From Candidatus Methanomethylicia archaeon (GTDB taxonomy: Archaea > Thermoproteota > Methanomethylicia > CALHIW01), in assembly GCA_038845975.1 (NCBI GenBank), contig JAWBQF010000030.1, forward strand, positions 1 through 33,591: a stretch of DNA of 33,591 bases. The letters run 5' to 3'. Shown here piece after piece: positions 10,907 through 33,591 of the stretch; the first letter of the stretch is position 1; every line of letters starts with the position of its first letter. The position numbers and the translations under genes are program-made. Under the pieces are notes generated by a model. It saw only the letters and a list, made by a program, of their open reading frames with translations. It was not told where the DNA came from and searched no databases.

Positions 10907-11955
10907 ATAAGATATATAAACATCAAAGCAATATAGTAAGTATATCTCTTCTTGCTCGTTATCCATTTTTAAGTGATGCAAGAAACTATATCTCCATGTT
11001 TAACATTAACATTGATGACTTAAGCAAGCCGGAACACAATGAAATACTACAAGAAGCCATGAGAGAAATTTATGAAATTATTAGTGGAGCTAATGAAGAG
11101 AGATACATTGACGACTATATTAAATTAATGGCTTTCCCAGTTATTCTAGCTATGCTCTCTTATATAGGTTCTAAGACATTGATAAATAAATATGCTATTA
11201 AAAAAGCTAAAGAAATTGAAGAAGTACTTAGACATGAAGATGATGATGTACTCTGTTATGTTGCAAGTAATGGATTTAACTGGACTATTAAACCTGTAGG
11301 AAAATCAATATTTGCTATAAACTTCAAGGATTACTTAATTGCATCAGCTATGTTTAATGACCAATCGTGGAAGTTAGTTAATCAAATTCTAATTAATGGA
11401 TTAGTATACTTATCTAAGAGTAAACTGATTAGATTAATGGCAGCTGAATTGCAAAGAAAAATAATACAGATTGAGCCGAAAAAGGAAGAACCGCCTGAAA
11501 GTATTAAGAATATAATACTAAAAATAAGGGAGGTAATAAAGAAAACAATATCTGAACGCTATGATTACTTAAAAGCTTCTGAACCTGTTAATATTAATTT
11601 CTTTCCACCATGTGTTTTAAGTATATATAATGATCTAATTTCAGGAAAATCAGTTTCACATATTGCTAGATTTATATTAACAACTTTCTTGATAAATATA
11701 GGATTAGACGTCGATTCTATTATTAATATTTTTCAAAAAGTAGCTGACTATGATCCAGCTAAGACAAGATATCAGGTTGAACATATAGCTGGAAAACGTG
11801 GAAGTAGAACAAAATATATAACCCCAAAATGCGAAAATATAAAAACCATGGGATTATGTCTAGGTAACTGTGGCGTAAAACATCCATTAAATGCATATAA
11901 AAGAAAGGTAAGACAGAAACATGAAAGAAAAAATTTTCTTAAAAAAGAAATTTAA
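10903..11955 (+). CDS. priL: DNA primase large subunit
   Basis: LARYPFL, FPPC, H.ARF.L.TFL and T.YQVEHIAG..G....Y..PKC with the C-terminal Fe-S cysteines. Confidence 0.93.
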   Translation: MNKIYKHQSNIVSISLLARYPFLSDARNYISMFNINIDDLSKPEHNEILQEAMREIYEIISGANEERYIDDYIKLMAFPVILAMLSYIGSKTLINKYAIKKAKEIEEVLRHEDDDVLCYVASNGFNWTIKPVGKSIFAINFKDYLIASAMFNDQSWKLVNQILINGLVYLSKSKLIRLMAAELQRKIIQIEPKKEEPPESIKNIILKIREVIKKTISERYDYLKASEPVNINFFPPCVLSIYNDLISGKSVSHIARFILTTFLINIGLDVDSIINIFQKVADYDPAKTRYQVEHIAGKRGSRTKYITPKCENIKTMGLCLGNCGVKHPLNAYKRKVRQKHERKNFLKKEI

Positions 11956-15024: not shown

Positions 15025-15053
15025 CTCATAAAACAATCTATATCAGCCCGGAA

Positions 15054-15140
15054 AGCCCGGTGGAGACTATCGCCGATTGTAGTGGCCAAGCATAGCAGGC
15101 TCTGGCCCTGCTGACGGGAGTTCGAATCTCCCCCGGGCTA
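15054..15140 (+). tRNA. tRNA-Gln(CUG) with a 14-nt intron at 10/11 (15064-15077)
   Basis: AGCCCGG/CCGGGCT acceptor, GCAGG-CT CTG GC-CCTGC anticodon arm, GGGAG-TTCGAAT-CTCCC T arm. Removing AGACTATCGCCGAT restores the D stem GTGT/GCAT; BHB central helix CGGT/GCCG. Confidence 0.9.
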
Positions 15141-23957: not shown

Positions 23958-24500
23958 ATGGTGTTATTATTGTCTTCAAATCCTTATATATGTAAGTTAA
24001 CAATTGATGGCGGATTGATAGAAGATGTAGATGCTATAAATAACCTCTATCATAATGATTTCTATGGTGAATTATCCGAAGGCATTTTAAAGCTTTTATC
24101 TGTTGAGGTACTATATCTAGAGCAGAAAGGCGTACTTATTGTTATTAATAATAAGAACCTAACTCTCTCTTTTGAGGATCTTATTAACTTCTATAGAAGA
24201 TATGATGAGGTTATTTGGGAGCGTTATTCACTATATCTTGACTTAAAACAGAGGGGGTATATTGTTAAAGGAGGTTTCAGTAATCGACTAGAATTTAGAG
24301 TATACAAAAGGGGGGCGTTTCCTCTCCATGATCCTGCAAATTTTATAGTAGTAGGAGTATTAGAAGGAAGACCCCTCTCACTTGAAGAACTCGATAAAAT
24401 AACAAGACAAACTAGAATTTCAAACAAGGAGTTAATCTTAGCTGTTATCGATAGAGAAGGGGGAATTACTTACTATGAAGTTGGCCTCATTACACTTTAA
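23958..24500 (+). CDS. endA: tRNA splicing endonuclease subunit, probably the structural (beta) subunit
   Basis: E.LYL, Y.DLK.RGY.VK, FRVY.RG, K.LILAVID and DREG.ITYYEV. The KYG.DF motif and the catalytic His are not conserved in position. Confidence 0.85.
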   Translation: MVLLLSSNPYICKLTIDGGLIEDVDAINNLYHNDFYGELSEGILKLLSVEVLYLEQKGVLIVINNKNLTLSFEDLINFYRRYDEVIWERYSLYLDLKQRGYIVKGGFSNRLEFRVYKRGAFPLHDPANFIVVGVLEGRPLSLEELDKITRQTRISNKELILAVIDREGGITYYEVGLITL

Positions 24501-25301
24501 CTCTAAGTATTAGGGTCTTCCACATCTTTAATAAATGATTTAGTTCTTTAACCGATTACTTCTCTATTTGCTCCACATATTTACTGTAAAAAGTAATTTC
24601 TTGAAAACTGTCATTTTTATACTTCTTCTAATAATCTTAGTGCCGAATGTTTCTCATTATGTACTGAAACATTACTAGATTTCCAGCTGTAAATAAGTTT
24701 TCATTTATTAAAGAAGTAAGAGTAGTAATAAGGTATTCTCAGTAATTTTTGGTTTAATTATTATATTAATTATAATCTTACTACTTTGTTGGTTTTACTT
24801 GAAGCTAGTGGTTTAGGATGAGAGTTAGATCATAAACATTTTAGGTTAATTTGTTGTACCAAGCATATCATGTTCGATATTCAAAACATTGATTTAATAC
24901 AATATCTATGTCTAATATTACATACTACAATATTTCCTTATTGAATAATCAAAAACTATGTAGAAGATGAAGTGGTTAAAATAGAATTTTCCATATAAGA
25001 AGATTAATAAATAATACATTATAAAATTGATAAAATTTCGGTTAATATTAGGTGTGTCTAACTTATGGTAGTTAACCGCTAAACTTAAGGTATTTTGCTG
25101 GGGTATGTGTTCATGCTAGGGAAGTTAGCCTGTACTGCTACTAGAATCATATATAAAATTGTTAAAAGTCATTCCAAAGAATAGTTTAAAATAAAAGCCA
25201 CCAGGAAGCTAGTTTACATCTGGCAGTTAACTGCTTGGCCTATTTGAGTACGTCCATTAAGTAGTTAAATCTTATATATTTGAATAATAAGATAGTATCC
25301 T

Positions 25302-25387
25302 GGGCCCGTAGCGCAGTATGGAAGCGCGTCGGCCTCCTATTAATTGAAGAAAGCCGTTGGTCGTGGGTTCAAATCCCACCGGGCCCG
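25302..25387 (+). tRNA. tRNA-Arg(CCU) with a 12-nt intron at 37/38 (25340-25351)
   Basis: GGGCCCG/CGGGCCC acceptor, GCGC D stem, loop CT CCT A|TTAATTGAAGAA|A, GTGGG-TTCAAAT-CCCAC T arm. Confidence 0.9.
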
Positions 25388-25404
25388 TTTTAAGGGAGTT
25401 ATTG

Positions 25405-33217: not shown

Positions 33218-33315
33218 CGGGCCCGGTGGGATTTGAACCCACGACCACTGGGTTTCTTCAGGTTAAAAGCCCAGCGCTCTACCTAACTGAGCATCCCGTT
33301 TAGTATTACGGGCCC
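33218..33315 (-). tRNA. tRNA-Lys(UUU) with introns at 9/10 (33293-33306) and 37/38 (33254-33263)
   Basis: GGGCCCG/CGGGCCC-G, GCTC/GAGC and CTGGG-CT TTT A|ACCTGAAGAA|A-CCCAG; BHB helices CCCG/CGGG and CTTT/GAAG. Confidence 0.9.
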
Positions 33316-33349
33316 CTCCCCCGAGCCCATCAATGTTATTATAAGCCTA

Positions 33350-33357
33350 AATATATT
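33350..33357 (-). promoter_or_regulatory. putative TATA box of tRNA-Lys
   Basis: AATATATT on the minus strand after AAAG, starting 29 nt upstream of 33328. Confidence 0.5.
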
Positions 33358-33591
33358 CTTTATGGTATTACTAAGGAGCTTGTGAACTTTAGCTTTATTT
33401 ATTGCTTCCCTTATTTATGGTAGTAGTATGAGTAAGGTCATAGGCTTATTATGGATGGAACTCTATTTGCTCTAGCTTTATGTTGCTATATATTTCTGTT
33501 CATGTTTGTCTAGTATGGTTTCAGATATTTTGTTTATTTTGTAGGGTTGTATTTGTTTTATGGTTTATCTTAAGCTTCTATTGAGTTTGAT

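Follow-up and report, generated by a model that had tools for sequence, protein, structure and literature searches.

A lysine transfer RNA (tRNA) gene with an unusual 5' leader lies on the minus strand of a 33,591-nucleotide (nt) stretch of DNA from Candidatus Methanomethylicia archaeon (GenBank assembly GCA_038845975.1, contig JAWBQF010000030.1, positions 1 to 33,591), the whole of which is referred to here as the window. The source genome (G000) is that of an uncultured member of the Thermoproteota known from hot-spring metagenomes and has a G+C content of 33.7%. A few nucleotides upstream of the tRNA, the leader carries a heptamer that closely resembles the 5' strand of the tRNA's own acceptor stem. 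The gene is interrupted twice, and its parts, in the order of the transcript, are as follows.

33328-33322, minus strand: leader copy GGGCUCG, the proposed surrogate of the 5' acceptor strand, pairing 7/7 with the 3' strand
33321-33316, minus strand: spacer GGGGAG between leader copy and tRNA, from reading of the sequence
33315-33218, minus strand: tRNA-Lys(UUU) gene, from reading of the sequence and Rfam alignment
33315-33307, minus strand: exon 1, tRNA positions 1-9, GGGCCCG UA, from a scan for splice motifs (i=61, j=75)
33306-33293, minus strand: intron 1, 14 nt, at position 9/10, whose CGGG pairs with C4-G7 of exon 1, from the same scan
33292-33264, minus strand: exon 2, positions 10-37, with G10 at 33292 and the anticodon UUU at 33267-33265, from Rfam alignment and reading
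33263-33254, minus strand: intron 2, 10 nt, at the canonical position 37/38, an Rfam insertion after the anticodon loop
33253-33218, minus strand: exon 3, positions 38-73, with the 3' acceptor strand CGGGCCC at 33225-33219 and the discriminator G at 33218, from Rfam alignment and reading of the sequence

The true 5' strand, GGGCCCG, occupies 33315-33309 and is followed by U8 and A9 at 33308-33307. The leader copy starts 13 nt upstream of position 1 and differs from this strand by a single transition, C to U at position 5. Like the true strand, which forms a 7/7 acceptor stem (GGGCCCG:CGGGCCC), it pairs with the 3' strand CGGGCCC at all seven positions, one G-U pair included. The anticodon loop reads CUUUUAA after removal of the 10-nt intron, whose boundary, read by hand, places GAAG opposite C32-U35 with bulges UA|A and AA|A. 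The Rfam model RF00005 scores the gene at 39.4 bits (cut-off, 29) through model positions 10-63 only, and an ARAGORN run did not call it, both as would be expected with a 5' intron.

Intron 1 lies within a bulge-helix-bulge (BHB) splice motif that is built from the acceptor strand itself. The motif scan used the published definition of a 4-base-pair (bp) central helix, two 3-nt bulges and a flanking helix of at least 2 contiguous pairs. For the 9/10 intron the central helix is formed by CCCG (C4-G7) with intron CGGG, 4/4 Watson-Crick; the two 3-nt bulges are UA|A and AU|G, and cleavage within them yields U8 A9 G10 in the product. The outer helix, h, comprises three pairs, G1-G3 with C11-U12-C13, while h' is limited to one pair; the motif is therefore of class hBH and not a full hBHBh'. 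A preliminary description of this locus, made from the letters alone, had given the same one-site difference, 7/7 pairing and arrangement of nt 1-7, and the reading of the minus strand and the BHB scan bear these out. The class of gene proposed here joins a leader heptamer, no more than 12 nt upstream and pairing at 6/7 or better with the gene's own 3' strand, to an intron whose BHB motif uses acceptor nt 1-7; the Lys gene has a 7/7 leader, a 6-nt spacer and the 9/10 intron. It is not split or permuted: its parts lie in order within 111 nt (33328-33218) and its BHB is made of exon 1 and intron. As GGGCCC is its own reverse complement, the Lys leader can also pair with the true 5' strand and with intron CGGG, and the 7/7 match to the 3' strand is hence not enough on its own to tell which of the three is the partner of the leader. 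A hairpin of leader and true strand was considered and rejected, since it needs the palindromic GGGCCC, would have a 3-nt loop in the related genome compared below and has no equivalent for the acceptor sequences AGCCCGG and GGGGCCG.

The arrangement recurs in the source genome wherever an intron takes up the acceptor strand. A scan for T loops, which covers tRNA genes with usual T loops, gave 41 candidates; five without a 5' strand were set aside as non-tRNA and the remaining 36 were sorted by gene structure. Acceptor-sequestering introns were found in seven of these genes, at positions 3/4 (two genes), 7/8 (one), 9/10 (two) and 10/11 (two). The 9/10 pair consists of Lys(UUU) and a tRNA with a CAU anticodon, the 10/11 pair of Gln(CUG) and Gln(UUG). 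In six of the seven, a 7/7 partner lies in the leader, separated by 2-7 nt from the true strand or from the leader segment of the BHB. Three of these copies are exact (AGCCCGG twice and GGGGCCG once) and three have one C-to-U change (GGGCUCG, GGGCCUG and GGGGCUG); the leader of the seventh gene, GGGCCAG, forms 5 bp in a shifted register. Each copy follows the acceptor sequence of its own gene and spans positions 1-7 without ever extending to 8-9. In the 29 other tRNA genes, no 7/7 partner is present within the 200 nt before the T arm, barring the 5' strand of a neighbouring tRNA and with the exception of tRNA-Glu(CUC), in which the partner is inside an intron (6/7 versus 0/29 leader copies; Fisher p = 3.6e-6). 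By chance, a 7/7 partner of a tRNA 3' strand, G-U pairs allowed, occurred in just 0.29% of 200,000 trials with random 31-nt windows for this 33.7% G+C genome. One further gene of the set lies in the same window.

15045-15140, plus strand: tRNA-Gln(CUG), with an exact leader copy AGCCCGG at 15045-15051, the spacer AA, the true strand at 15054-15060 and a 14-nt 10/11 intron at 15064-15077

ARAGORN labels this gene tRNA-His(GUG); it is identified as Gln by the A1-U72 acceptor AGCCCGG and, in the Rfam alignment, by its anticodon loop CUCUGGC. An ordinary neighbour, tRNA-Gly(UCC) at 25301-25388 of the window (plus strand), has a canonical intron and no leader copy and offers an internal contrast. 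The tRNA-Glu(CUC) gene (contig C50, about 11690-11791, plus strand) has the true strand GCUCCGG and an intron of about 27 nt near 13/14, which holds a second 7/7 partner, GCUUUGG; its copy is thus downstream of the true strand, and this arrangement is kept in the related genome. No strict BHB was found in this gene by the scan, and it was hence counted among the 29 ordinary genes and not the seven.

Comparison with a second genome of the same genus (G001, the single one compared; 62% complete), which contains orthologues of five of the seven genes, indicates that the copies are retained while their surroundings change. Over the five gene pairs, 34 of the 35 leader-copy positions are the same, and the sole change, GGGCCAG to GGGCUAG, keeps a G-U pair. 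The spacers differ in all five pairs, by substitution or by insertion or deletion: the Lys spacer has 6 nt in one genome and 2 nt (GA) in the other, one 3/4 gene has 3 additional nt, and substitutions are present at one of two positions in the other 3/4 gene, two of seven in the 7/8 gene and one of two in the Gln gene. As the Lys spacer is 4 nt shorter in the sister genome, its length does not appear to be constrained. The 14-nt Lys intron has one substitution between the genomes, in its loop part, and the Lys leader copy has none; the locus therefore yields no covariation of its own. Contigs from metagenome runs X6, X13, X14 and X15 were also compared, of which only X13 and X15 cover the leader; positions 33316-33328 are unchanged in both, and run X15 has A>T at 33293, within the 3' bulge of intron 1.

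For a wider census, 401 genomes of the phylum were searched with patterns that required the true strand and the intron but no copy. These replaced our first pattern scans, which were biased to copies: they demanded one, favoured exact or G-U copies and were dominated by false matches, with seven of ten matches to the Gln tandem pattern in the class being coding sequence and the matches to GGGYYYG..GGGCCCGTA in the phylum being mostly a 23S rRNA segment or tRNA 3' ends. With the intron-anchored patterns, 9/10 introns were found in 13 genes from 8 genomes and 4 families, and in each of the 13 the leader offers a partner that pairs at 6/7 or better, with a spacer of -1 to 6 nt. In 11 of them the partner is 7/7, comprising 4 exact copies, GGGCUC(G) in 3 genes from two families, GGGCCU(G) in 3 and GGGUCU(G) in 1; the two 6/7 partners are GGGCCA(G) and GGGCCUA. 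The Gln 10/11 introns gave 33 matches in 27 genomes from at least 10 families, and a leader partner of at least 6/7, 1-12 nt upstream, was present in 30 of 30 genes examined (22 exact AGCCCGG, 5 GGCCCGG, 1 CGCCUGG, 1 UGCCCGG and 1 that is one base shorter). Spacers in the Gln set vary from 1 to 12 nt, and the intron interiors, of 13-30 nt, have little shared sequence outside the 3' element and bulge. Among Lys(UUU) genes in other families of the class, 14 distinct ones without a 9/10 intron had no upstream partner of 6/7 or better, the best reaching at most 5/7. T-loop sweeps of two further genomes, G174 and G153, revealed a Glu gene in which a 5' intron is accompanied by an exact copy, and a gene with an 8/9 intron and a 6/7 copy; the copy in G153, GCUCCGG, again matches the acceptor strand of its own gene.

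The differences between leader and true strand in the intron-chosen sets are mainly C-to-U changes (positions 4, 5 and 6) and A-to-G changes (Gln position 1). In the Gln leaders, A1 is changed to G in five genes, turning an A-U pair into G-U, and C5 to U in one. No G-to-A change was found in the 9/10 and Gln leader sets, though G is the commoner base in these heptamers. Changes that do not pair are at the ends of the helix, at position 1 in two Gln genes and at positions 6 or 7 in two genes of the 9/10 set. These sets include related genes that are not independent, and the substitution bias is hence stated without a p-value. Positions 2-4 of the Gln leader (GCC) are unchanged in 29 of 30 genes and have a partner in the 3' strand and none in the intron, which favours the 3' strand as the partner of the leader. 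Judged from sequence comparison, the leader copies appear to keep pairing, with C-to-U and A-to-G changes preserving it, while spacers and intron interiors drift. The preliminary description had argued that pairing rather than sequence is kept and that this selection argues against a simple tandem duplication. Selection is supported by the retention in 13/13 and 30/30 genes and by an identical Lys leader beside a shortened spacer. The statement on pairing holds across the family of cases and could not have been drawn from the Lys locus on its own, which presents one C-to-U change shared by two genomes; likewise, the comparison of orthologous leaders that it suggested showed copies kept beside drifting spacers and an invariant Lys leader.

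For six of the seven genes, the placement of promoter-like sequences is consistent with transcription of the copy. We scored upstream regions with a 10-mer position weight matrix (consensus AAATTTATAT) built from the 29 ordinary tRNA genes, which replaced a position-profile test of low information. A box was found 31-37 nt upstream of position 1 in 19 of these 29 genes. In the leader-copy genes other than Lys, six in number, the top-scoring box reaches 8.1-10.2 bits and precedes the copy by 30-33 nt and position 1 by 40-47 nt; the copy is therefore predicted to be at the extreme 5' end of the transcript. Two candidate boxes are present upstream of the Lys gene.

33351-33360, minus strand: candidate promoter box AAGAATATAT, resembling a B recognition element and TATA box, 5.6 bits, 32 nt upstream of the leader copy
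33339-33348, minus strand: second candidate box AGGCTTATAA, 8.4 bits, the best match to the matrix, 33 nt upstream of true position 1

In the sister genome AAGAATATAT is conserved (5.6 bits, 34 nt from the leader copy) and AGGCTTATAA is degraded to AGGCTTAATT (1.4 bits). The 32 nt between AAGAATATAT and the copy agree with the 30-33 nt of the six other genes. As only the weaker box survives in the sister genome, we tentatively favour AAGAATATAT as the promoter of the Lys gene. In ordinary tRNA genes of the source genome the promoter-like box lies at a very uniform distance from position 1, and RNase P RNA was undetected despite genes for the RNase P proteins Pop5 and Rpp30 (contig C38); ordinary pre-tRNAs in this organism may therefore have very short leaders or none. 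A separate feature of this region is a segment at 33380-33430 of the window in which the summed depth of metagenome contigs is far above that of the flanks, with many small insertions and with many contigs diverging to both sides, a pattern suggestive of a short sequence, repeated or mobile, immediately ahead of the tRNA-Lys promoter.

Our results make it rather probable that the conserved heptamer in the leader has a function, namely, to stand in for the 5' acceptor strand and so leave the true strand available to the BHB motif. In the primary transcript, C4-G7 would pair with intron CGGG as the BHB central helix and G1-G3 with C11-C13 as the outer helix. Without a stand-in, the free G+C-rich 3' acceptor strand would be expected to out-compete the 4-bp BHB helix for the true strand. 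With the leader copy occupying the 3' strand, the precursor could form a pseudo-cloverleaf in which the BHB hairpin takes the place of the D arm and the splicing endonuclease can cut. Once ligation is done, the 3' strand would exchange the leader copy for the true strand in a register shift, and RNase P would then remove the leader for good. Transcription of the leader, its pairing in vivo, the need for it in splicing and the manner of the final register shift are presumed in this scheme.

Folding predictions agree with one part of this scheme. In partition function calculations at 37 C, the helix of leader and 3' strand has a probability of 0.96-1.00 in five of the seven genes and 0.67 in Gln(CUG), and in the seventh gene the leader helix is present in the shifted register in the minimum-energy fold. 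With the leader present, the probability of the true acceptor helix is near 0. When the leader is removed from the five genes whose true strand is not split by the intron, the true acceptor helix rises to 0.98-1.00 and the BHB helix is at 0.00; the BHB helix is at 0.40-0.67 in three genes when the leader is present. The prediction is hence that the leader copy draws the 3' strand away from its true partner, a precondition for the BHB motif.

Several observations weigh against the surrogate strand, and some of them come from the same calculations. The BHB helix in the presence of the leader is at only 0.05 for Lys at 37 C (0.44 at 70 C) and at 0.00-0.01 in the two 3/4 genes, and it does not exceed 0.67 in any gene. 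Shuffled leaders leave the Lys BHB helix at 0.49 as against 0.05 for the native sequence, a control that is uninformative for G-rich leaders. The nearest-neighbour model handles 4-bp helices between bulges poorly, and in reality such helices are stabilised by the enzyme. When the intron is removed in silico, the leader helix is still favoured in all seven genes by 2.1-7.9 kcal/mol at 37 C (6.3 for Lys), and it is still preferred in six of seven at 70 C. It had been suggested in the preliminary description that a slightly weaker surrogate helix would favour its own displacement after splicing; these energies do not support that idea, and a weakened copy is not the rule either, since exact copies are present in 3 of the 7 genes here, 22 of the 30 Gln genes and 4 of the 13 genes with 9/10 introns. 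We infer that factors outside the calculation, namely, tertiary structure, modification and irreversible cleavage by RNase P, drive the register shift. RNase P RNA was itself not detected in the genome with model RF00373; model RF02357 also gave nothing, but its control gave no match, and that result is hence uninformative. The leader and the intron 3' element can form a BHB-like motif of their own (central helix strand CUCG, outer helix of 4 bp), a possible route to mis-splicing. For the Lys gene, the stronger box AGGCTTATAA, if used in the source genome, would leave the leader copy untranscribed. Finally, copies are not wholly confined to genes with the expected introns. A copy-like heptamer precedes an intron-less tRNA (L224) of G153, a G+C-rich genome in which chance matches are more frequent, and two Gln genes of family f35 (L267 and L268, in G212 and G147) have an exact copy and the spacer AC with an intron in the D loop and not at 10/11. 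In these two genes the copy may have outlasted a 10/11 intron that was lost, or it may point to a further role.

It is possible, if unlikely, that the leader acts at the RNA level through another partner or for another purpose, such as tuning of splice sites, a block to RNase P or 3' exonucleases that lasts until splicing is complete, or provision of an alternative 5' exon. Possible partners would be the intron 3' element or the freed D-stem strand. In the Lys gene the copy can form the same central helix with the intron as the true strand does (CUCG with CGGG, with an outer helix of 4 bp), and in the gene with the CAU anticodon CCUG can pair with UGGG; in the 7/8-intron gene, splicing from the leader copy would give an identical mature sequence. 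However, the copy spans positions 1-7 exactly without reaching 8-9, and Gln positions 2-4, which have no intron partner, are unchanged in 29 of 30 genes. The GCUC of the Lys leader does match the D-stem strand, GAGC, and the preliminary description had raised this as an alternative pairing, but GCUC occurs in just 3 of the 13 leaders of the 9/10 set (those with GGGCUC) and the pairing is not general. Another RNA partner, whether intron or D stem, thus fits the pattern of conservation less well than does the 3' strand. Use of the leader as a real exon was considered as a candidate and rejected, since the spliced products would be without U8, carrying G8 G9 in the Lys tRNA of the source genome, G8 A9 in that of the sister genome and A8 or G8 in the Gln tRNAs. 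U8 is near-universal in tRNA.

It is improbable, in our view, that the heptamer is a promoter or initiation element acting at the DNA level, in which case the Lys copy would lie between the TATA box and a start near position 1 and would be outside the RNA. The position of the best Lys box in the source genome, 33 nt from position 1 and hence at the modal spacing of ordinary tRNA genes, is in keeping with such an element. That box, however, is the one that is degraded in the sister genome while the upstream box is conserved; the other six genes have their best box at a distance from position 1 that places it 30-33 nt from the copy, and a DNA-level element gives no account of the copying of each gene's own acceptor sequence or of the restriction to genes with these introns. 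A functionless, neutral relic of tandem duplication or of the event of intron insertion is very unlikely. In its favour, the copies are directly upstream and sometimes abutting (9 of the 13 genes with a 9/10 intron have a spacer of -1 to 1), two f35 Gln genes hold a copy without the 10/11 intron, and mobile-element integration is reported to duplicate parts of archaeal tRNA genes (PMC3293823). Such a relic, however, would hardly be retained in 30/30 and 13/13 genes, drawn from at least 10 and from 4 families, in which the spacers and the interiors of the introns have diverged, or stay identical at 34 of 35 positions beside five changed spacers, or change mainly in ways that preserve pairing; nor is there a resemblance between the spacer and the sequence after the true strand.

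The surrogate strand may have a bearing on archaeal tRNA introns in general. As a rule, non-canonical introns of archaeal tRNAs are characterised through the local splice motif only, and in the portions of the reviews considered strand competition is not addressed. A stand-in strand would answer how a 4-bp helix competes with a 7-bp G+C-rich acceptor stem for one strand, and, as a folding switch acting in cis, it would impose the sequence "splice first, trim second" and so make the order of splicing and 5' trimming predictable. It would also explain the persistence of introns in or beside the acceptor stem, from positions 3/4 to 10/11. A broader rule, that in the Thermoproteota any intron borrowing the 5' acceptor strand comes with a leader decoy that holds the 3' strand until splicing, after which a register shift hands the tRNA to RNase P, is one that we would neither press nor dismiss, the chances seeming evenly divided. 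The tandem acceptor heptamer may in addition be of use to gene finders as an extra signal, as ARAGORN missed the Lys gene and mislabelled Gln as His.

The genome encodes two paralogues of the tRNA-splicing endonuclease, with PF01974 scores of 99.6 and 60.5 bits. The higher-scoring paralogue is on contig C1 at 60193-60450, and the other is in the window, where its open reading frame sits between intron-bearing tRNA genes.

23958-24500, plus strand: open reading frame of 180 amino acids with a tRNA-splicing endonuclease catalytic domain (PF01974 at 24213-24473, 60.5 bits)

The two paralogues presumably form a heteromer.

The closest known systems are the non-canonical BHB introns of Crenarchaeota and Thaumarchaeota, and the comparisons that follow apply to the portions of the cited works that were available. 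Relaxed motifs of the hBH and HBh' types, with a 4-bp central helix, 3-nt bulges and an outer helix, were defined by Marck and Grosjean in 2003, as quoted in a recent preprint (10.64898/2026.10.13.758758), and a heteromeric splicing endonuclease of broad specificity has been described (PMC4090602, PMC4033280). The Lys gene resembles these introns in its 4-bp helix between exon and intron, its two 3-nt bulges with the cut sites and its outer helix between exons, and the two endonuclease paralogues fit such a broad-specificity heteromeric enzyme (PMC4090602, PMC4033280). Accounts of these introns, as far as seen, differ in covering the intron and BHB alone, with no second, leader copy of the acceptor strand and no account of what keeps the 3' strand from its true partner. 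The available portions of PMC4090602, PMC4033280, PMC3218864, PMC8450103 and the preprint 10.64898/2026.10.13.758758 make no mention of a leader copy, and no description was found in the literature searched, which did not cover the founding papers on non-canonical introns and their supplements; the claim of novelty is therefore provisional. On this footing, BHB intron processing is the known part and a leader-encoded folding aid is the part added here.

Split and permuted tRNAs, as described in the portions available for Nanoarchaeum, Caldivirga, Staphylothermus and Thermofilum, are similar in that a sequence outside the tRNA is complementary to the precursor, is needed for a fold that can be processed and is then discarded. 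In one such case, a G-U to G-C difference between species was taken as selection on pairing (PMC3218864). In those systems, however, leader and trailer build the BHB and the pieces are separate or permuted, whereas here the gene is contiguous and the leader, which is outside the BHB except with 3/4 introns, mimics the mature strand. Finally, one study of bacterial pre-tRNAs reports, in the part available, that pairing of the 5' leader with the 3' end extends the acceptor stem and slows RNase P (PMC9433436). As in the archaeal genes, the leader there base-pairs on the 3' side of the acceptor and influences the order of processing steps; in bacteria, however, the true stem is extended, its 5' strand is not replaced and no introns are involved.

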